Assembly (NCBI GenBank): GCA_021513695.1
Contig: CP084166.1
Coordinates: forward strand, 640,001 to 704,000
Reading direction: 5' to 3'
From: Candidatus Heimdallarchaeum aukensis
Lineage (GTDB): Archaea > Asgardarchaeota > Heimdallarchaeia > Heimdallarchaeales > Heimdallarchaeaceae
Length of the DNA: 64,000 nt
This document shows, one piece after another, positions 4,812 through 56,951 of this stretch (positions within the stretch are counted from its first letter, which is position 1; each line of letters starts with the position of its first letter). The notes under the pieces were generated by a model. It had not been told where the DNA came from, did no database searches, and was given only the letters and a program-made list of their open reading frames with translations. Made by a program: the position numbers and the translations under genes.

Positions 4812-5975
4812 TCACAATAACCTTTCTTTTAATCTAAAAATAGCTTCTTCTAATGTCTCAATTTTTTGCGAGAAAGAAAATCTAACATAGTTACAGACTA
4901 TATTTTCATCATTTTCGGTGTGATAAAAACTTGAGCCTGGAACTACAGCAACACCTTTGTTTTTTACTAAGAAATCAGCAAAATCTGTGTCTCTCGTTTT
5001 AAAATTACTAATATCTGAAAACATATAATATGCGCCTTTAGGAATAATGGTTTTGAAACCTAGCTCATTTAATGATTTACTCAAGTAGTCTCTATTTTTT
5101 TGATATCTTTTTACTAGTTGGGAGAAATAGTCATCTTTAAGATCAAATGCTTTAATAGCAGCTTCTTGTAAAATTGAAGGAGCACAAACAGTCAGATAAT
5201 CGTGAACTTTTCTTATTCCTTTCATTAGTTTCTTTTCTGCAGCTACATAACCTATTCTCCATCCTGTAATTGAAAAAGTCTTACTAAAACCACTTATTGT
5301 TATTGTTCTTTCCTCCATCCCGGGAATACTTCCGAGACTTATGTGTTTTTCACCATCGTAGATGATATATTCGTAAATTTCATCTGTAATGGCGATAATA
5401 TCGTTATCTATACAAATGTCTGCAATAAGTTTCATTTCTTTAGAAGAAAATACTTTTCCTGAAGGATTATGGGGAGAATTGACAATTATAGCTTTAGTTT
5501 TTTTAGTTATTTCTTCTTTTAGTTTCTCTTCATCTATCGAAAAATCTTCTTGTTTCAATTGAACATATTTAGGTACTCCTTCTGCAATGTGTGTAATAGG
5601 AGTATAATTTTCGTACCAAGGTTCAAAAATAATCACTTCATCTGCAGGATTAAGAATAGAAAGAATACTACTACTTATTCCTTCACTAGCCCCACAACAA
5701 ACTGTTATTTCATCTTCGGGATCAACCTCTATTCCATTGTATCCTCTCAATTTTTCACTGATTTTCTCTCTTAAATTATAATTACCATAAGTTATAGAAT
5801 ACTGATGTTCTTTTTTTTCAATAGCTTCTATTATACCTTCAATAAGCTCTTGAGGGGGTTCAAAATCAGGCATGCCTTGAGAGAGGTTAATTGCTTGGTT
5901 GACTATAGCCTTTCTAGTCATTTCACGGATAGTGCTCTCTTCAAAACCTTCAAGTTTTTTGGCAAATTTAAGCAT
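4812..5975 (-). CDS. PLP-dependent aminotransferase, class I (aspartate/aromatic aminotransferase family)
   Basis: Motifs NSPHNPSGKVFS and SFSKTFSITGWRIGY (PLP-binding lysine). The protein is 387 aa. Confidence 0.9.
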   Translation of the reverse strand: MLKFAKKLEGFEESTIREMTRKAIVNQAINLSQGMPDFEPPQELIEGIIEAIEKKEHQYSITYGNYNLREKISEKLRGYNGIEVDPEDEITVCCGASEGISSSILSILNPADEVIIFEPWYENYTPITHIAEGVPKYVQLKQEDFSIDEEKLKEEITKKTKAIIVNSPHNPSGKVFSSKEMKLIADICIDNDIIAITDEIYEYIIYDGEKHISLGSIPGMEERTITISGFSKTFSITGWRIGYVAAEKKLMKGIRKVHDYLTVCAPSILQEAAIKAFDLKDDYFSQLVKRYQKNRDYLSKSLNELGFKTIIPKGAYYMFSDISNFKTRDTDFADFLVKNKGVAVVPGSSFYHTENDENIVCNYVRFSFSQKIETLEEAIFRLKERLL

Positions 5976-6047
5976 GAACTCTTTTAGTGCTAATTTATTA
6001 AAACTCTTTTCTTAGTTTTTAAAAAGTAATAGTAATAGTAAAAAAGT

Positions 6048-6953
6048 TCAGTCAGTAATGGTAATAAACTCAATTTTCTCAATATTTAGGAATCCAAGTT
6101 GAGATAATTCATTTACAATTGTGATAAAATCCTCAAAAGATATATTTTTTGCTAATTTCTGTTGATATACATCAAGTAAGGTTTTATGTTGATTACCAAT
6201 ACAATGAGTGATTATTTTTTCATAATTTGAAAAATTCTTAAAAGTTAATGTATCAATGATATTGTTCCATTGTCTTCTAAAAACAGAATAAAATTTCAGT
6301 GTTGAATGAGGATAAGCACTTTTAGCATGAAGTATTAAATCTAATTCTAAAATTTCATCAGTTGAAGGATTTTTTTCTAAATTGGGGTCTAAATATAAGA
6401 TTAGGTAAGAAAGCATTTCTTCATCTAGAAGAATAATTGCTTCCAAGATTGAAGCTAGTTTAGATAACCATTCTTTAGCTCTCTCTAATTCTATTTGTTT
6501 ATTTATTTGAGCTTTAATATCAATGTAACCAAGTTCTGAATTTGATTCTACTTCTACACCTTGACTTCCATCTAAAACAAATTTCGATTGTCTTAATCTA
6601 TCATTTATTTCAATTGTTTTTAGGTTCTTTCCTTTAAAACTCTTTAATTTAGAAATTTTTTTAGTAGAGAGATCAACTTTTTGTGGAGTTGGAATATTAA
6701 AAGAGGTTATTTGTTCAGTTCTTGCATCAGTGCCTAGTTTAACTGGAACTTGTGATCTTACAGTCAGACTTTTATCAACATATAAAATAATAGCATTTAA
6801 TTTTGAATCAGCACAGTTGTGCAAGTCTACATATTCTGTATATCCTTTAGAATCTACCTCAGAATGAAGAGTAGGATCAACGTAAATTACTCTTGTTTTT
6901 CGGCAGAGGTTGCACTCATATTCAATTTTTACTTTTTTATTATGAATAGTCAA
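6048..6953 (-). CDS. Hypothetical protein with an N-terminal Cys/His zinc-ribbon-like motif
   Basis: The motif CNLCRK...HNC lies near the N-terminus. No other recognisable domain was found. Confidence 0.55.
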   Translation of the reverse strand: MTIHNKKVKIEYECNLCRKTRVIYVDPTLHSEVDSKGYTEYVDLHNCADSKLNAIILYVDKSLTVRSQVPVKLGTDARTEQITSFNIPTPQKVDLSTKKISKLKSFKGKNLKTIEINDRLRQSKFVLDGSQGVEVESNSELGYIDIKAQINKQIELERAKEWLSKLASILEAIILLDEEMLSYLILYLDPNLEKNPSTDEILELDLILHAKSAYPHSTLKFYSVFRRQWNNIIDTLTFKNFSNYEKIITHCIGNQHKTLLDVYQQKLAKNISFEDFITIVNELSQLGFLNIEKIEFITITD

Positions 6954-7051
6954 ATATATCCAAACCCCAGTGTATATTAAATCTATCTTTCAAAAAGATT
7001 TTATAAATCTTACTAGAGATTCTGAAAGTCCTAACGTGTAACTTTTTTCAA

Positions 7052-7930
7052 CTATAATTTACGAACAGTATTTTTTGTTATCTTTTCTTCTATGAAATTT
7101 ACAAGCAATTTTTCTAACTCTTTTCTTTTTTTTGCCAAAACAAAAACTCCGTTTCCTAGCATTATCTGACCTACATATAATTCAGAATAATCTTTGGATT
7201 GTTCTACTATCTCTTTTACTTTTGCTGTTTCCAAACCACATTTTTCAGTAAAGAATTGTATGTTCTTGGCAAAGACTGAAACAGAAGGATTTGCATATAA
7301 TTTGGACAGAACTTTTTTTCCAGCATTGATAATATTTTTCTTTTTTTCAGCATTTCGTATTATATCTTTAGTTTTTAGAGGACCAAAAGCTTTAGTAGCA
7401 ATAATATATTTCTCATCTTCAATCAAAGGTTCTGTTATTCCTATTCCCGGAGCTCCTTCTTTTCTTCGTAGCTCCCACCCAGCTTGATAAAGACCTATTA
7501 TATCTCCCAACCCTCCTCCTTCTTCTACTTCTGCAATGTGAGCTATCTGGAATATTTTTTCTTTAGATAAACCTAGATCGAAGAAATCATTTAAACAAAA
7601 AGATAAACTTAAAGCTCCTGCTGCACTTGCTCCAAATCCAGAAGAAAGGGGAACTTCAAAGGTATGAAACACATTTATATCTAGAAACTGTTTTTCTACT
7701 TTTAATAACTTGGCGAACTGAGTAAGTACATTTTCACTTACTTTTGCATCTTTTTTTTCAACTTCATCAAAATAAACATGATTTCCATCTTCTGAATGCT
7801 CAACTTCAGTTATTATTCCACGATTTATTGAAAAACCTGCTCCCTTCGACCCTACATATAAAGGGTTAGTTTGTTCATCACATATTTCAAATATTCCCGT
7901 AATATGTCCAGCTACCCAGTATTTTACCAA
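7052..7930 (-). CDS. GHMP-family kinase, probably archaeal pantoate kinase (coenzyme A biosynthesis)
   Basis: GHMP ATP-binding motif PLSSGFGASAAGALSLS. N-terminal VAGHITGIF resembles the PGHITGFF start of archaeal pantoate kinases (COG1829). The protein is 292 aa and lies directly downstream of a ketopantoate reductase homolog. Confidence 0.7.
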   Translation of the reverse strand: MVKYWVAGHITGIFEICDEQTNPLYVGSKGAGFSINRGIITEVEHSEDGNHVYFDEVEKKDAKVSENVLTQFAKLLKVEKQFLDINVFHTFEVPLSSGFGASAAGALSLSFCLNDFFDLGLSKEKIFQIAHIAEVEEGGGLGDIIGLYQAGWELRRKEGAPGIGITEPLIEDEKYIIATKAFGPLKTKDIIRNAEKKKNIINAGKKVLSKLYANPSVSVFAKNIQFFTEKCGLETAKVKEIVEQSKDYSELYVGQIMLGNGVFVLAKKRKELEKLLVNFIEEKITKNTVRKL

Positions 7931-47032: not shown

Positions 47033-48100
47033 ATGATTAGAGAATTAAACGTTGAGAACTTCAAATCAATAGAAAATCTTTATCTTAAATGCTCAAAAAT
47101 TAACATCTTTATTGGAGAACCAAACGTAGGAAAATCAAATATTATTGAGTCTTTAGGATTGTTTTCATCTATTTTATTTCATGAAAATTCTTCAAATAGA
47201 AATGAAGCTATTAACAAAGAGTTTATACGTTATAACAATTTTATTGACCTATTTCATAACAGTAATCTAAGAAAAAAAATCAAAGTATCTACAGATAAAT
47301 ACCAAATTGAAATTAGAGCGGAAGAAAATAATTTCTATATTTCTGTTTATCGAATTCAACTAAGTTCAGAAGAAAAAGATAAAAACTTTAGTAAAAGAAT
47401 CATTAGATCAGAAAATATCTTACAAGTAGAAGCAATAGCAAATTCACCTGGAATATATTCTTGGAACTTTAAGACTAATTTTAACGATTTTAAGAAAGAA
47501 AAGAATTTCCCAAAGATAATGTATTATAAAAATATGGAAACAGAAAAATTCGTTTCTCTAAACTTTGATTTTTTGAATCCTCCATCAGGAAATAACCTTC
47601 TAACTATATTGCAAACAAATACAGATCTTTACAAAAAAATCAATGAGATACTTTTTTCTTTCAATCTCAAATTAATGCTGAGAGAAGTAGAAAAGACTAT
47701 CGAACTTGTAAGAGATATAGAAGGAAAATTAATTGCTATTCCCTTTAAGCTAGTTGCTGAATCTTTCCATCAACTTTTCCTTTTACTAAGTGCGATGAAT
47801 ACATGTAAAGATTCTATTATCTGTTTGGAAGAACCAGAGACACATCTATTCCCAAAATATACAAAGTTAATAGCTGAACTCATAGCTAAAAATAAAAACA
47901 ATAATCAGTATTTTATTTCAACACACAACCCCTATTTTTTGATTTCATTAATAGAAAAAGCAAAAAAAGAAGATTTAAGTATTTTTGCAGTAAGTTTTCA
48001 GAATAATCATACAAAAGTTTCAAAAATACAAGAAAATGAGATAAGAGAACTCTTAGAAGGAGAAGATCCATTTTTTAACATCAATAAGTACTTCGAGTAG
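47033..48100 (+). CDS. AAA_21/ABC-type ATPase (OLD/abortive-infection-like ATP-binding protein)
   Basis: Walker A GEPNVGKSN, Walker B/D-loop ICLEEPETHLFP, and C-terminal ISTHNPYFL (H-loop), typical of the AAA_21 defence ATPase architecture. Confidence 0.75.
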   Translation: MIRELNVENFKSIENLYLKCSKINIFIGEPNVGKSNIIESLGLFSSILFHENSSNRNEAINKEFIRYNNFIDLFHNSNLRKKIKVSTDKYQIEIRAEENNFYISVYRIQLSSEEKDKNFSKRIIRSENILQVEAIANSPGIYSWNFKTNFNDFKKEKNFPKIMYYKNMETEKFVSLNFDFLNPPSGNNLLTILQTNTDLYKKINEILFSFNLKLMLREVEKTIELVRDIEGKLIAIPFKLVAESFHQLFLLLSAMNTCKDSIICLEEPETHLFPKYTKLIAELIAKNKNNNQYFISTHNPYFLISLIEKAKKEDLSIFAVSFQNNHTKVSKIQENEIRELLEGEDPFFNINKYFE

Positions 48101-48597
48101 ATGTCAATGATACTAGTTGAATGTTATGCTGATGAAAGATTAGTGAGAACACTTCTACCAGAATTATCTAAAAAAGAATATTCTCATGCAGGTAACAAAA
48201 CAGGGGTAATCAAAAGGTTAATTAAAATAAAAAATGGAAAAAAATACATTGGATTAGTTGATAGAGATCCCCACTCTAATCCTCCTGGTTTTTTCCACAA
48301 CTTTACTCTTCTGGAAAATCATGAAGAATCAAAAATATCTATTTACTTTTTCAAAAAAAAAACAATGCTAAACTTGTCGTTATTGAACCTGAACTTGAAG
48401 GATGGATTGTAAACATCGCTCATTCGATTCACTTTAAACTCAGAGATTATGGTTTACCTGAAGATCCAGATAAATTGCATGAGGTTATCAACGAAAAAAG
48501 AAACCTAGATAATTTCTCAAAGCTTGTTTCAGACTTACTACAAAAAAGTGTTCACCTTTCTAAATTAAAAAAAATTTTATCAAAAAGTATAGATTAA
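48101..48597 (+). pseudogene. DUF4276-like partner gene of the AAA_21 ATPase, split by a frameshift inside an A10 homopolymer
   Basis: ORF 48101..48412 (MSMILVECYADERLV...IGLVDRD) continues in another frame (NNAKLVVIEPELEGWIVNIAHS...SKSID) after the A10 run at 48353..48362. An A11 run would join the two into a protein of about 165 aa. The start overlaps the ATPase stop. Confidence 0.45.
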
Positions 48598-51623: not shown

Positions 51624-51852
51624 ACATTTTTTTCAATTCAACAGTTTTAAAATATTTTGCATAAAAGAAGACAAAAAATATAGTTTAGAAATTAAAAATT
51701 AGGAATCAAATATTGTTATTTTTTATTCTAAGAGTTAATTTAAGAATAAAACCTTATCAATAAATCGCCAATCAAATTCAAAATAATACGCCTAGTTCTT
51801 ACTATGAAAAAATTTATTTTTGATAATATGATTCTTTAGAAGTGATTATTTA

Positions 51853-52698
51853 ATGAAAAAAGAAAATCTTGATTTACAACTAACTAATCTTTTTTTAGAA
51901 CTAGAAAAGAAAGTAGATGAGTTTAATAAAGAAACAATAGATAGTAAAGAGATTTTAACATATTTTAAAAAATATTATTTCGAATTTTACACTTCTTTCT
52001 CTTCTAAATTTTCTTACAAAAAACTCAAAGCCAAGAAAGAAAAATTGAGAATGAATACTACTTTCACAAGAGGAGAAAAGAAGTATCTTGACTCGTTATC
52101 AATGTTAAATCAATGTCTTATTAAAATAATTTCAAAAAACCAACAAAAAATTGTCACTTTACAATATTTTGACCCAAAAATAGAATCATTAGAAAAACTA
52201 ACAGAGAACTTTGCCACGCAGAAAGAAGAATCAAATGAGGTAATATCTGTTTTAAGAACTATAACGGATTGGTTTCTCAAAAATAGAGAATATTTCAATT
52301 CATTAAATTCAGAAAAAACAGAGCTAATAATTAGGAAATTACTCTCGACATCCAATATTCTTTCAAAAGTAAGTACCCAGATAGACCTCCAATTAGAGAG
52401 AATAAAATTCCAAGACTATTTAGAGAACCTTAAAAGCAGAAGAGAAGAAATACTGAAAAAAATCATTTATGAGCGAGAGAAAATTCCTCTGCAAGAACTT
52501 TCTCCTCTTTTAGAATTCAATGATGTATTAGAACTTGAAAGATGGATATTGCATTTACCTACTAAACTTTTCAAAATTGATGATGAAATAGTTATTATCA
52601 ATAAAGATGAGCAAGATTCTGACATTGTCTCTGCTATTTCAATGTTACTTGATAAATTCCAAGAGTATGAAGAATTAGGATTAGGTAAGAAGATTTAG
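51853..52698 (+). CDS. Hypothetical helical protein that shares a C-terminal module with the downstream LRR protein
   Basis: The C-terminus ...LLEFNDVLELERWILHLPTKLFKIDDEIVIINKD aligns with ...FLGFDELIDLENWILGLNLNNVTIKGNYLLIDQS of the next gene. Confidence 0.55.
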   Translation: MKKENLDLQLTNLFLELEKKVDEFNKETIDSKEILTYFKKYYFEFYTSFSSKFSYKKLKAKKEKLRMNTTFTRGEKKYLDSLSMLNQCLIKIISKNQQKIVTLQYFDPKIESLEKLTENFATQKEESNEVISVLRTITDWFLKNREYFNSLNSEKTELIIRKLLSTSNILSKVSTQIDLQLERIKFQDYLENLKSRREEILKKIIYEREKIPLQELSPLLEFNDVLELERWILHLPTKLFKIDDEIVIINKDEQDSDIVSAISMLLDKFQEYEELGLGKKI

Positions 52699-52707
52699 GT
52701 GATAGAG

Positions 52708-53637
52708 ATGAAAATCAAACTTAACACTATAAAAGGAGAAAAAGAAATATCTCTGAAAAAAAATCAGCATATAATTGATCTTTCGAATATGAATCTTTTA
52801 ACTATAAATTTAGATTTTTTGGAAGAATTACCAAATGTTGAAGCAATAAACCTGTCAAATAACAGTTTATCCAGGTTAGATTTAACCCCAATAGAAAACT
52901 GTTCTAACTTATCTTCTCTACGTTTATCTAATAATAATTTAGTCAAAATTAGACTAGAACCGCTAAGAAATTGTCCCAATCTCGAGATATTAGATTTATC
53001 AAACAATCAGCTTACAGAAATCGATTTATCTCCTATTATATCTTGTACTATGATCAAATCTCTTAATCTATCTTTCAATAAGTTAGAGTCTATAGATCTT
53101 TCTCCTCTTTCTCTTTTCCCTAATCTACGAACGCTTAATATTTCCAATAATAGACTTACCTTCGTCAACTTAAAAAAGATAGTTTTCTGCATTGCACTCA
53201 AAGAGCTAGATATTTCAAACAATAATTTCAGAACTTTAGATTTAACTCCAATTTTTGGTTTTAGAAATTTGGTTCGTTTATACTTATCTGAAAATGAAAA
53301 AAAAGTAGCTGACTGGGATGTTTCCTACTTAAAATATCAACAATTGTCAAGTGGTTTAAGATATTATTTTCAAGAGATTAAAAAACAAAACCTGAAAGTT
53401 CAAAGAAATGATATTTTCAAGAAAGTACTAGAAAAATACATATCAATCAGGCTTTCAAAACTAGCCATATTTCTCGGATTCGATGAATTAATAGATTTAG
53501 AAAATTGGATTTTGGGTTTAAATTTGAATAATGTCACCATAAAAGGGAATTATTTGCTGATAGATCAATCAGTTTATGTTGACATAGATAAGGAAATGAA
53601 TAAATTAATGCAAAGTTTTGACGGGTTAAATAGATAA
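52708..53637 (+). CDS. Leucine-rich repeat (LRR) protein
   Basis: Eight or more tandem 22-24-aa LRRs (LxxLxLSNNxLxxIDLSPIxxC). The C-terminal module is described above. The ATG at 52708 is preferred over the GTG at 52699. Confidence 0.8.
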   Translation: MKIKLNTIKGEKEISLKKNQHIIDLSNMNLLTINLDFLEELPNVEAINLSNNSLSRLDLTPIENCSNLSSLRLSNNNLVKIRLEPLRNCPNLEILDLSNNQLTEIDLSPIISCTMIKSLNLSFNKLESIDLSPLSLFPNLRTLNISNNRLTFVNLKKIVFCIALKELDISNNNFRTLDLTPIFGFRNLVRLYLSENEKKVADWDVSYLKYQQLSSGLRYYFQEIKKQNLKVQRNDIFKKVLEKYISIRLSKLAIFLGFDELIDLENWILGLNLNNVTIKGNYLLIDQSVYVDIDKEMNKLMQSFDGLNR

Positions 53638-53700
53638 CAGATAAACTATTTAGTGAATGAAAATTTTTATTTGGAGTTTGAAAGAAAAGTAAAGATTTTC

Positions 53701-53952
53701 TTAATTTTCTTTTAAAGAATAAATTAACTTTAATTTTTCCATAGCTTCTTGAATAGGCAATTCTCTGAGTTTTGAAGCTTGCTCTAAATGTTCATTACAA
53801 AACCATTCTGCATTTATTGGATGACCAACCTTTCCTTCTCTTTCCATTTTTTTATTCCATTCTTTAACTTCCTCAGTTTCTTTGAAATAGATTATATCTC
53901 CAGTTCCTGGTGAAAATCTCTTTCCACAGATAACACAAATTGGGGGTTTCAT
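53701..53952 (-). CDS. Small zinc-ribbon-like protein
   Basis: MKPPICVICGKRF...WFCNEHL gives CxxC...CxxH. The protein is 83 aa. Confidence 0.4.
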   Translation of the reverse strand: MKPPICVICGKRFSPGTGDIIYFKETEEVKEWNKKMEREGKVGHPINAEWFCNEHLEQASKLRELPIQEAMEKLKLIYSLKEN

Positions 53953-54126
53953 TAGAAATAAACAATTATCGTTCTTTAAAAAATTATCTTATTTTTTAGA
54001 TAATCAAAACAAATTTTCTTCTTTTTTTTCACAGACACTAGTTTTTAATTATAATATATCTAATTAGCATCTCCTAATACGGTTATGTTTAAATAATTTA
54101 GACTAACCTTATTTTTTTAGATAAAA

Positions 54127-54372
54127 ATGGAAAATATTATCGAAGCAAAGGATATTACAAAAACTTACAACGGAAAAACAATTCTGAATAAACTTTCATT
54201 TCAAGTCAAAAAAGGAGAATTATTCACATTAATTGGCCATAACGGTGCAGGAAAAACAACTCTTTTCAAGATTCTTACAGGACAAATTAAACAAGATAGT
54301 GGTACAGCAAGAATCTTTGATACTAATGTTGAATCGCAATTAAAGAGTAAGTATAAATTACGTATCAGCTAT
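54127..54372 (+). pseudogene. ABC transporter ATP-binding protein, N-terminal fragment interrupted by an IS insertion
   Basis: Walker A GHNGAGKTT ... RISY, then sequence unrelated to ABC ATPases. The conserved continuation VPQADLLWDNLTIKEN reappears at 56217. Confidence 0.8.
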
Positions 54373-56216
54373 GATTTACTTTTTTACGTAAAGTTTTTCG
54401 CACTCTGTCTTGCAAGAGAGAAAACTAAAGGAAGTTTAATCTCTTGAACTCAACCAAGCCATACAATGCCATGAAGGGGTTGAGACAGACATCATACACG
54501 AAACGTGGGAATCATAAAGAAGAATAGAAAGTTTTTCTTTCTTTTCTTCACTCCACGAGAGACAAAAAAAAGAATTACTCCTATAATAGAGAAGGAGTTA
54601 CTTTCCTTTTTGTCTACTGGGACTGCAACCAATGGCTGAGCCCTCGGCAAACAGTGAAATGGGAAGAACTGAACCTTTGACCAGTGAGGTAATCAGTGAT
54701 AGTTGTTCCTCGAGGACGAAAAAGATCTCCAAGGAACTTACGAGCGATATTCATTGCTCCTGTGAGGTCAGAGTGGAAAGTGTAATTGCAAGAGGAGCAA
54801 TGAACTAAACCTCTTACTGGACGGATAACTTTCCTTCCACAACGAGCACAGTGAGAAGATGTCCCTCTTTCATTCATTGTTAATATTCGGTGAGGTTCAA
54901 AACCTCGAAGTATCAATGCCCGACGGAGAAGAGCAAGAATAAGAGAAAAGTTCCACCGATGAAGTTTCCTGCGAAACTTACGAGTACTTTTACCTTTTCC
55001 TTTCTCCTCACGAACATGTTTAGGATAACCTACAACGACGAAAAGGTCATATATTCGCGCATAAGTCTCTATCGTCTGCACGATGTCGCTTACAAATTGG
55101 TAAATATAGGCTCGTTTAACGTTTCTATATCTTCTTCGGAGGAGACTAAGAAAACGATAAACTTGGTGTTTTTTACCCGACTGGTCATTTAAAGCCGCTT
55201 TCCTCTGAAGACGGGAAAGTTTGAGTTTATATCGATGATTGACTCTATTCCACTGTTTGGTATACCAGAACTTTATCTCTTTGTTTGTTAATTTCTTTTT
55301 AGGGGTCAGTAACACTCCTGTAGCAGGAATGTTTATCCCTATATCTATTCCCAGCACAGCTGGGGGAAGAGAAGAAGAACTTTTTTCTTCAGGAGGATAA
55401 AAAGAAGAAGGAAGAACTTTTAATTGGAAATACACCCACCACTCACGTGTAGAACGTTTATATCTTAGTTCTAGACTTTTTATTCTTCCTTTCTTTAACT
55501 CCTTCTGGTGGAAATCACTCATCTCTAAAGGTAACCATATTTTCTGATGATAAGGGGTGTTTCTTTTCCACGTATCTAACGAGTCTCTTATCCCCACCCA
55601 CCAACGAGTGAGAGTGTTATTCTTCTCTTTTGGTAGATGAACGAGAATGAACCTCTTTGCATTAATTAGTTGTTTTCTAGCTCTCTTTATTGGAGGACGA
55701 GTATTGTTAGGCCTATACCCTTGTTCATATAGTTGCACGCCTATATCTCTACATTCTTGGAATTCATTGTGAGAACAATAAAGGAACATTTTCTTAAGAT
55801 CGTGAGGAACAGTCTTTCTTCTCTCTTCTTCTTTAACTTTTGAAGTAGTTAGCGTCAGTTCATCTAGTTTTCCTCTATGTACTCTTATTTTCCCTCTCTT
55901 AGTTTTAGTACATATTTTTCCTCTGTTATGATGTATTATTCTCACATACTTCTCTATTATCCTCGTGTCTCTCCCCGTTATTCTCCTTAACTTTTCCTTC
56001 TTCCTCGTCGTCAATACCTCATTCTTTATTCTCACTTTCAAGGTTTTGACGACGTCCTCCATCTTTCTCTTTTCTCCTTCTTTCCTCTTTTTTTGTTTCT
56101 TCTTCTCTTTTTTATTCTACTTTTTTTCCCTATAAAAACCCCTCCCCTTCTTCTCTTCCCTTTTTTCTCTCTACATCTTCCTCAACAATTATAAATTACG
56201 CAAAAAATAGACGCAT
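54373..56216 (-). mobile_element. IS200/IS605-family element carrying only tnpB (IS1341-like) inserted into an ABC ATPase gene. It is GC-rich relative to the host
   Basis: Joining 54372 to 56217 restores a perfect ABC ATPase reading frame (..RISY|VPQADLLW..). The 1844-bp insert carries only tnpB. GC content is clearly higher than the flanks. Confidence 0.8.
54614..56062 (-). CDS. tnpB: TnpB (OMEGA) RuvC-like RNA-guided endonuclease
   Basis: RuvC-I AVLGIDIGINIPATGV. RuvC-III plus zinc finger NERGTSSHCARCG...HCSSCNYTFHSDLTGAMNIARKF. The protein is 482 aa. Confidence 0.85.
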   Translation of the reverse strand: MEDVVKTLKVRIKNEVLTTRKKEKLRRITGRDTRIIEKYVRIIHHNRGKICTKTKRGKIRVHRGKLDELTLTTSKVKEEERRKTVPHDLKKMFLYCSHNEFQECRDIGVQLYEQGYRPNNTRPPIKRARKQLINAKRFILVHLPKEKNNTLTRWWVGIRDSLDTWKRNTPYHQKIWLPLEMSDFHQKELKKGRIKSLELRYKRSTREWWVYFQLKVLPSSFYPPEEKSSSSLPPAVLGIDIGINIPATGVLLTPKKKLTNKEIKFWYTKQWNRVNHRYKLKLSRLQRKAALNDQSGKKHQVYRFLSLLRRRYRNVKRAYIYQFVSDIVQTIETYARIYDLFVVVGYPKHVREEKGKGKSTRKFRRKLHRWNFSLILALLRRALILRGFEPHRILTMNERGTSSHCARCGRKVIRPVRGLVHCSSCNYTFHSDLTGAMNIARKFLGDLFRPRGTTITDYLTGQRFSSSHFTVCRGLSHWLQSQ

Positions 56217-56951
56217 GTTCCACAAGCAGATCTTCTTTGGGATAATCTAACTATAAAAGAAAACATCTCTCTAATGGGTAATCTTTATGGATTAAAGAAA
56301 GCACAAATTGAAGAAAAAGCAAACAAATTTCTTACTGATTTTAATTTGGTTGAACATCAAAAAAAACTTGCTGATAAACTGTCTGGAGGTATGAAAAAGA
56401 AATTATCAATTGCTATGTCTTTGATGAATGATCCATTACTTCTATTTTTAGATGAACCAACTACAGGACTTGATGTTGAAGCAAGAACTTTGTTAATTGA
56501 AGATTTGAAAAGGCTGAAAGAAGAAGGAATAACCATTATTCTTACTACCCATTTAATGGAAGTAGCAGAATCACTAGCGTCAAAAGTTTTAATCATCGAC
56601 AAAGGACAAGTAGTTGCATTTGGAACAGTAGAGAATATAATTAATGAATCTATAGGTGATAAAATCCTCCAAGTAGGATTAATCAAAAGAAATAATGAAT
56701 TTGAAGATTTTATTGAAAAAGAAATCAAACATTCAAAAGAAGTCGATTATATTCAAATCAAACAAACATTTTTCTTCAAGGGAGAAAAGTTACCAGAACT
56801 TATACAAGTAATTTCTTCTTCTGAATTTATTAAAGACATCTATGAAATTAACATTAAAAAAAGTTCTCTAAAGGAAGCTTTTCTCTTTATTACTCATAAA
56901 ATTTACAAGAATGGGAATAACTTTAATTCTTTACTGGAGGTTCAAAAATGA
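56217..56951 (+). pseudogene. ABC transporter ATP-binding protein, C-terminal fragment separated from its N-terminal part by the tnpB element
   Basis: VPQADLLWDNLTIKEN..., signature LSGGMKKKLSIA, Walker B LLFLDEPTTGLD, H-loop TTHLMEV. The annotated ATG at 56274 is internal. Confidence 0.8.

Follow-up and report, generated by a model that had tools for sequence, protein, structure and literature searches.

Introduction

The subunits of the proteasome lid, the COP9 signalosome (CSN) and eIF3 oligomerize through two kinds of contact: their PCI winged helices join side by side, and the helices after these form a bundle. The association of PCI winged helices is likewise summarized by Makarova et al. 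2024 (PMC10936438), who report HHpred-level similarity to PCI in the C-terminal domains of membrane Ser/Thr kinases from archaeal ESCRT loci, list helix-turn-helix (HTH)/PCI domains in Asgard ESCRT-I-like multidomain proteins, and propose oligomerization or contacts between winged helices for such PCI-like C-terminal domains. In a study of 2016 that surveyed more than 2,200 prokaryotic genomes, CSN subunits were not found, and lid subunits were described there as unknown in prokaryotes/archaea (PMC4860701). Here we describe two adjacent genes, A and B, from the archaeon Candidatus Heimdallarchaeum aukensis, whose products both end in a PCI-like module. They lie in a stretch of 64,000 nucleotides (contig CP084166.1, positions 640,001 to 704,000), called the window below, and all coordinates refer to its first letter unless another locus is named.

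Gene A (51853–52698, plus strand) encodes a protein of 281 aa that is predicted to be all-helical, and gene B (52708–53637, plus strand) encodes a leucine-rich repeat (LRR) protein of 309 aa when read from its ATG. An earlier reading of the window from its letters and open reading frames (ORFs), hereafter the sequence-only reading, had drawn attention to this pair; both ORFs are present as it described them, and the C-terminal peptides it quoted are found in the translations. We show that the C-terminal modules of A and B are homologous, that they are members of a large family with a PCI-like sequence and fold signal, and that the two genes form a conserved pair. We then weigh the proposal that the two modules dock on each other against other explanations of the module.

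Results

The shared C-terminal module

BLASTP with compositional adjustment aligned residues 191–235 of A with residues 230–274 of B, ungapped and at 40% identity (E = 4e-7), and Smith-Waterman alignment lengthened the match to A182–269 and B220–307. In 5000 shuffles of the B C-terminus the Smith-Waterman score was never attained (Gumbel p ~2e-7). The signal was weaker against shuffles of the whole protein, 2 of 2000 of which attained the score (p ~8e-4). When a hidden Markov model of the module family was built without the window sequences, and also without the nearest A-like relatives, it still recognized both proteins, with scores of 83–86 bits for A and 60 bits for B. The homology of the two C-termini proposed in the sequence-only reading is thus significant under composition-corrected alignment.

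It could be argued that the likeness is a chance or compositional effect of Leu/Lys/Glu-rich sequence in an AT-rich genome (~30% G+C, which is also the value of the window), in agreement with the two whole-protein shuffles that attained the observed score, or that it reflects a very recent local duplication without functional meaning. We regard this explanation as extremely improbable. Chance similarity was ruled out by the composition-adjusted BLASTP, the shuffles confined to the C-terminus, the profile search and the independent leave-out profile (86 bits for A and 60 bits for B). As for a recent duplication, the divergence of A and B predates the gene cassettes described below, and both copies have been retained in four lineages.

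The module is longer than the ~60 aa initially estimated, a figure in which helices on both the upstream and the downstream side had gone uncounted. It measures ~90 aa (~88–95 aa), starts ~25–30 residues upstream of the peptides quoted earlier with a helix H1 (RREEILKKII in A and QRNDIFKKVL in B), and runs on through a C-terminal helix (DIVSAISMLLDKFQ in A and DIDKEMNKLMQSF in B). In A the module occupies aa 182–281 (52396–52695, plus strand) behind an N-terminal region of predicted long helices (aa 1–181; 51853–52395, plus strand), and in B it occupies aa 220–312, counted from an alternative GTG start (53356–53634, plus strand).

The module family

A profile of 95 columns, made from the modules of A, B and two close relatives, was searched against 1.84 billion representative proteins and retrieved 103 cluster representatives at E ≤ 1e-3, 14 of them at E ≤ 1e-10. 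The match noticed between the two C-termini therefore held up in a search for further members. Architectures were counted over 100 representatives, the window's own clusters being left out. In 85 of the 100 the module ends no more than six residues from the C-terminus, and 40 have at least one predicted transmembrane segment upstream of it. Thirteen members consist essentially of the module alone and three carry two modules; N-terminal partners elsewhere in the family include LRRs (8 members), TPR, HEAT, LVIVD and FG-GAP propellers, a parallel beta-helix and zinc ribbons, and several of the transmembrane members carry large, presumably extracellular domains.

Source organisms were named for 10 clusters among the 30 representatives looked up, and eight of these 10 are Heimdallarchaeota, Heimdallarchaeaceae or "Asgard group" archaea; a single metagenome-assembled genome (MAG) supplies four module paralogues. 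The only named exception is a pair of adjacent genes, P0043 and P0111 (HUS51622.1 and HUS51623.1), on a 3-kb contig binned as Candidatus Paceibacterota, a bacterium of the candidate phyla radiation. Because the same two proteins are also found on 23-kb contigs that bear no taxon name, mis-binning may explain the label, or the pair may represent a rare non-Asgard occurrence. A search of Joint Genome Institute (JGI) metagenome contigs with the A-like alignment returned nothing. Word-indexed searches returned only a 63-aa B fragment for the B C-terminus and only five short proteins for the family profile, which reflects limits of the index and not absence.

Two peculiar architectures were also seen. 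In nine proteins (P0029, P0031, P0034, P0055, P0056, P0062, P0075, P0082 and P0085) the module is not terminal, and a Cys/His-rich tail of ~85 residues after it comprises a double zinc ribbon and a RING-like part, with zf-RING_16 matched in six of them; this tail connects the PCI-like module with possible E3-ligase domains. P0003 (159 aa, from a 652-bp ENA contig) joins an unrelated N-terminus of 70 residues, which has no Pfam match, to an A-type module 90% identical to that of the window, and it is either an artifact of chimeric assembly or the product of recent domain shuffling.

PCI-like sequence and fold

The Pfam PCI model (PF01399) matched 36 of the 100 full-length members and 33 of 50 module-only sequences, with a best E-value of 3.9e-7. 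Among these 50, CSN8_PSD8_EIF3K was matched by 17 and Paf67/eIF3L by 11, and any other winged-helix Pfam family by at most two. Several members score above the PCI gathering threshold of 22 bits (P0013 with 32.0, P0023 with 28.0 and P0016 with 27.2), and their matches span profile positions ~12–63 of 84, which is the winged-helix core. When the family profile was compared with PDB sequences, the best matches were eIF3a (E 0.06), a plant Rpn12-type "PCI domain-containing protein" and CSN3, weak values that are consistent with the Pfam result.

The predicted fold points in the same direction. AlphaFold2 (AF2), given a family alignment of 50 sequences, modeled the A module with a mean predicted local distance difference test (pLDDT) score of 85.8 in the order H1(2–21)-b1-H2-H3-b2-b3-H4(69–88), a canonical winged helix followed by a C-terminal helix. 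The wing is a beta-hairpin in this model, as had been anticipated when the segment was called winged-helix-like, and the B module is expected to have the same winged helix and C-terminal helix. The nearest structural neighbors of the A model were Rpn12, CSN7, CSN8, CSN3, Rpn5, GANP/Sac3 and eIF3k; Foldseek listed CSN3, Rpn12, Rpn5/PSMD12, eIF3 and CSN8 at the top, at E-values of only 0.04–0.6. The module is accordingly not novel, as it had first been called: it belongs to a large archaeal family in which Pfam PCI recurs, and its model is most similar to PCI subunits from the proteasome lid, CSN, eIF3 and TREX-2.

Directly after the C-terminal helix, half of the 100 representatives end in GK followed by at most two residues, with the consensus G-x-G-K-K. 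In A this tail reads LGLGKKI (52675–52695). H3 and the wing range from neutral to acidic: the mean net charge of the family was −0.5 for H3, −0.8 for the wing and −3.2 for the whole module, and the A module reaches −8. This pattern, read from the sequences, fits protein binding better than DNA binding.

Were the module an ordinary DNA-binding winged HTH, one would expect A and B to regulate transcription or to be nucleoid-associated proteins. The winged-helix fold as such, the basic tail and weak matches of single members to HTH_11, Fe_dep_repress and TFIIE_beta would agree with such a role, but we consider it very unlikely. The position of the recognition helix is acidic or hydrophobic (consensus eLE.WLL) and the wing is acidic; 40% of the members are membrane proteins, some of them with the extracellular domains mentioned above; and only PCI-clan Pfam models recur among members. 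In a comparison with MarR/ArsR/IscR-like regulator families, at most one of 50 members was matched (E ~0.02–0.04), and H3 and the wing were not basic.

A conserved gene cassette

A-like proteins, which have a helical N-terminus, the module and an LG[LI]GKK[IE] end, form a subfamily of four lineages, namely the window clade, P0005, P0006 and P0008. In every A-like lineage with retrievable context, the next gene encodes an LRR protein with a terminal module and lies on the same strand 9–15 nt downstream. For the window clade the cassette is seen in the window itself, in L001–L003 and in L004. The other cassettes are those of L005 (A-like 400–1251, B-like 1262–2188), L006 (A-like 5509–6279, B-like 6289–7083), which is a second, paralogous cassette in the genome of Candidatus Heimdallarchaeum endolithica, and L007 (A-like 146–955, B-like 971–1738, cut by the contig end).

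Between cassettes, A is 28–33% and B 30–38% identical, and recurrence of the pair across four lineages that are only 28–38% identical indicates that the two-gene cassette is old. The A-type modules are 38–43% identical to each other and 26–35% identical to any B-type module. In addition, the GxGKK tail is kept in every A-type module and missing in all B-type modules with a complete end, the B module of the window included. Since the A-type modules are nearer to each other than to the B-type and the tails differ accordingly, the split between A and B modules predates the cassettes, and evolution has preserved the asymmetry.

Adjacency of module genes is not confined to the A/B cassette. Four of them lie within 4.5 kb in L005, one with two tandem modules; L009 has a tandem pair; and the two module-bearing proteins P0043 and P0111 have adjacent locus tags. 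In Ca. H. endolithica, 3.2 kb upstream of the A/B cassette, a gene for a 280-aa LRR protein (L004 1628–2470) is followed after ~90 nt by a start-less ORF (2559–2777) that is a module remnant (40 bits), and the whole segment (1628–2777) looks like a decayed third gene with LRRs and module.

Proposed docking of A and B

We lean, without great confidence, toward mutual binding between the A module and the B module, by which the LRR recognition surface would be joined to the long-helix domain of A. A and B would then be the products of a conserved two-gene cassette of Heimdallarchaeia, each ending in a divergent PCI-type winged helix and an amphipathic C-terminal helix. The two winged helices would pack side by side and the C-terminal helices would form a bundle, as in eukaryotic PCI subunits, and binding would tether the presumed ligand-binding LRR solenoid of B to the long helices of A. 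The modules may also bind further paralogues that bear the module. We prefer docking because of the PCI-like sequence and fold, the acidic recognition helix and wing, the strictly C-terminal placement of the module behind many kinds of binding domain and an A/B cassette that is both old and asymmetric. The idea that the module pairs the two gene products had been put forward in the sequence-only reading, and it is strengthened by the conservation of the closely spaced gene pair in four divergent lineages; the module–module contact, its geometry and the process that it serves are what we infer.

Several observations weigh against this interpretation. The canonical helical-repeat subdomain of PCI proteins is replaced by LRRs in B, and the helical part of A has no detectable similarity to that subdomain: AF2 of full-length A, with an alignment of three sequences, gave an all-helical but low-confidence model (pLDDT 59), and a profile of the full-length A-like proteins returned only coiled-coil noise from the PDB. 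A and B gave no Pfam PCI match, as full-length proteins at E ≤ 0.1 or as isolated modules at E ≤ 10, and a profile made from cassette modules only found no PCI protein among PDB sequences, the top match being an MJECL15 domain (E 0.08). The PCI link of A and B is therefore transitive plus structural, and it is on transitive homology plus fold that we assign their module to the PCI winged helices as a divergent branch in archaea, PCI-like and not a new fold or kind of domain. Finally, many family members have no module-bearing neighbor (L010, L011), so that pairing of neighbors is not a general rule of the family.

Another explanation, possible but in our view rather doubtful, is that the module is a common address tag by which each paralogue docks independently on a shared hub, using its winged helix and GxGKK tail; A and B would then be neighbors by virtue of a shared process and not of mutual binding. 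A membrane-proximal scaffold, the ESCRT/ubiquitin machinery or the proteasome would be candidates for such a hub. The exact C-terminal position of the module in most representatives behind very different N-termini would suit a tag, as would the mixture of these N-termini (transmembrane segments in 40 of the 100, and LRR, TPR, HEAT, LVIVD propeller, beta-helix or zinc-ribbon/RING in others), the GK ending of half of the family and the many members that stand alone. It also agrees with the reports that membrane kinases of archaeal ESCRT loci carry PCI-like winged helices at their C-termini and that Asgard ESCRT-I-like proteins contain HTH/PCI domains (PMC10936438). However, the A partners retain GxGKK and the B-type modules with a complete end lack it, an asymmetry more easily reconciled with a complementary pair than with equivalent tags; the cassette has been kept in all four lineages, and no hub candidate is encoded beside A and B in the window.

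Gene structure and protein features

The sequence-only reading had combined a distance of 9 nt between stop and start with a B protein of 312 aa. The 9 nt is correct for the ATG start, which gives 309 aa and from which the B orthologues are annotated, with a 9-nt gap after A, whereas the 312 aa belongs to a GTG at 52699 (plus strand) that abuts the A stop. A Shine-Dalgarno-like motif, AGGTGA (52697–52702, plus strand), overlaps the A stop and lies 5 nt before the B ATG; judged by its letters, it is a candidate ribosome-binding site. A and B are probably co-transcribed. A scan for sigma-70 promoters and terminators gave as many matches as shuffled sequence and carries no information in an archaeal genome.

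A protein with 100% identity to A occurs in a Ca. Heimdallarchaeaceae MAG, and the complete genome of Ca. H. endolithica PR6 is collinear with 51808–54373, the nucleotide identity being 85%. A matched no family in Pfam, NCBIfam or PADLOC, and its N-terminal region aligns only with the A-like proteins P0005, P0006 and P0008. In B, ~8 repeats of 22–23 aa (52765–53289, plus strand) follow the pattern LxxLxLSxNxLxxIDLxPLxxC and exceed the Pfam gathering scores of LRR_8 (81.6 bits, E 3.3e-23, cut-off 27) and LRR_4 (69.9 bits, E 1.6e-19, cut-off 27), so the naming of B as an LRR protein was right. The LRR part also gave internalin-like NCBIfam matches, all far below their cut-offs. The accompanying remark that standalone LRR proteins are uncommon outside Asgard or Roco contexts adds nothing here, as the host is an Asgard archaeon and B is not a standalone LRR protein. 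A role of the pair as a defense system was ruled out, as no PADLOC-DB model matched A or B at E ≤ 0.01.

Neighboring genes

Upstream of A, an AAA_15/AAA_21 ATPase gene (47033–48100; PADLOC AbiLi 2.6e-20, AriA 7e-15) is followed by a 103-aa ORF (48101–48412) whose match to DUF4435/AriB (profile length 236) is confined to the start of the profile, and the segment 47033–48412 looks like a degenerate ATPase and Toprim (AbiL/PARIS-like) defense pair. The window departs from the syntenic region of L001 and L002 in the block between a patatin gene and gene A.

Downstream, a gene on the minus strand (53701–53952) encodes an 83-aa CxxC...CxxH protein without a family match. It directly follows the cassette in L001, L002 and L004 and is absent at the cassettes of L005, L006 and L007, so that it is probably a mere neighbor. 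Further on, a 1.84-kb insertion (54374–56214; G+C 0.36 vs ~0.29) splits the gene of an ABC-transporter ATPase into flanks at 54127–54447 and 56274–56951. Its ORF (54614–56062, minus strand) encodes a 482-aa TnpB-like protein with the Pfam domain Cas12f1-like_TNB. L001 and Ca. H. endolithica (L004 8274–9254) have an uninterrupted ATPase gene (326 aa), and blastn placed the insertion junction at 54373|56215.

Discussion

In the literature searched we found no description of the module family, its GxGKK tail or a cassette of a helical and an LRR protein. PCI scaffolds are usually seen as eukaryotic, and the expansion described here sits in the archaeal lineage nearest to eukaryotes. Diversified PCI-like modules on receptor-like, repeat and RING proteins of Heimdallarchaeia are thus a testable candidate for the origin of PCI-mediated assembly, and the cassette of A and its LRR partner offers a small two-protein system for the biochemistry of PCI–PCI pairing. 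In addition, proteins hitherto labeled "hypothetical" gain a domain assignment. A more speculative and fairly unlikely extension is that many proteins of Heimdallarchaeia co-assemble, in a large combinatorial network, via a stand-alone PCI-type winged helix and C-terminal helix. The members of this network would be LRR, TPR, HEAT and RING proteins together with membrane receptors whose extracellular parts are propellers or beta-helices. Eukaryotes would later have fixed the PCI scaffold in the proteasome lid, CSN and eIF3, and the network might be its archaeal precursor; the A/B cassette would be the minimal heterodimeric unit of the network.

Compared by description, the ESCRT-associated kinases (PMC10936438) resemble the present family in having a small C-terminal PCI-like winged helix on multidomain archaeal proteins, many of them membrane-anchored and Asgard lineages included. 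They differ in that LRR partners are unmentioned there, and the loci studied here are without ESCRT genes. The PCI-like winged helices of DDRGK1 and UFL1, of the UFM1 E3 ligase, show structural resemblance only, at a lower Z score than Rpn12 and CSN7, and no sequence signal to them was found. B is like bacterial internalin- and Roco-type LRR proteins in its short repeats of 22–23 residues and in its LRR_8/LRR_4 and internalin-like NCBIfam matches, but it has no evident signal peptide, cell-wall anchor or Roc-COR GTPase and it carries a PCI-like module at its end.

From the PCI domain of eukaryotes (PF01399/PCI clan) the module family differs first in its occurrence, which is in Asgard archaea and not in eukaryotes. 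A and B of the window are too divergent for a direct Pfam match, and the helical-repeat subdomain is undetected in the family, where LRRs, transmembrane segments with coiled coils, TPR, HEAT and propellers are found instead. No MPN/JAB partner was seen in the vicinity. To our knowledge, the extreme C-terminal GxGKK tail has no counterpart in eukaryotic PCI proteins. The two have in common the H1-b1-H2-H3-b2-b3 core and the C-terminal helix after it, as seen in the model of the A module; PCI-clan Pfam models recur in the family, and the nearest solved structures are PCI subunits. Finally, several module proteins are found per genome, frequently in adjacent genes, as would be expected for subunits that co-assemble.

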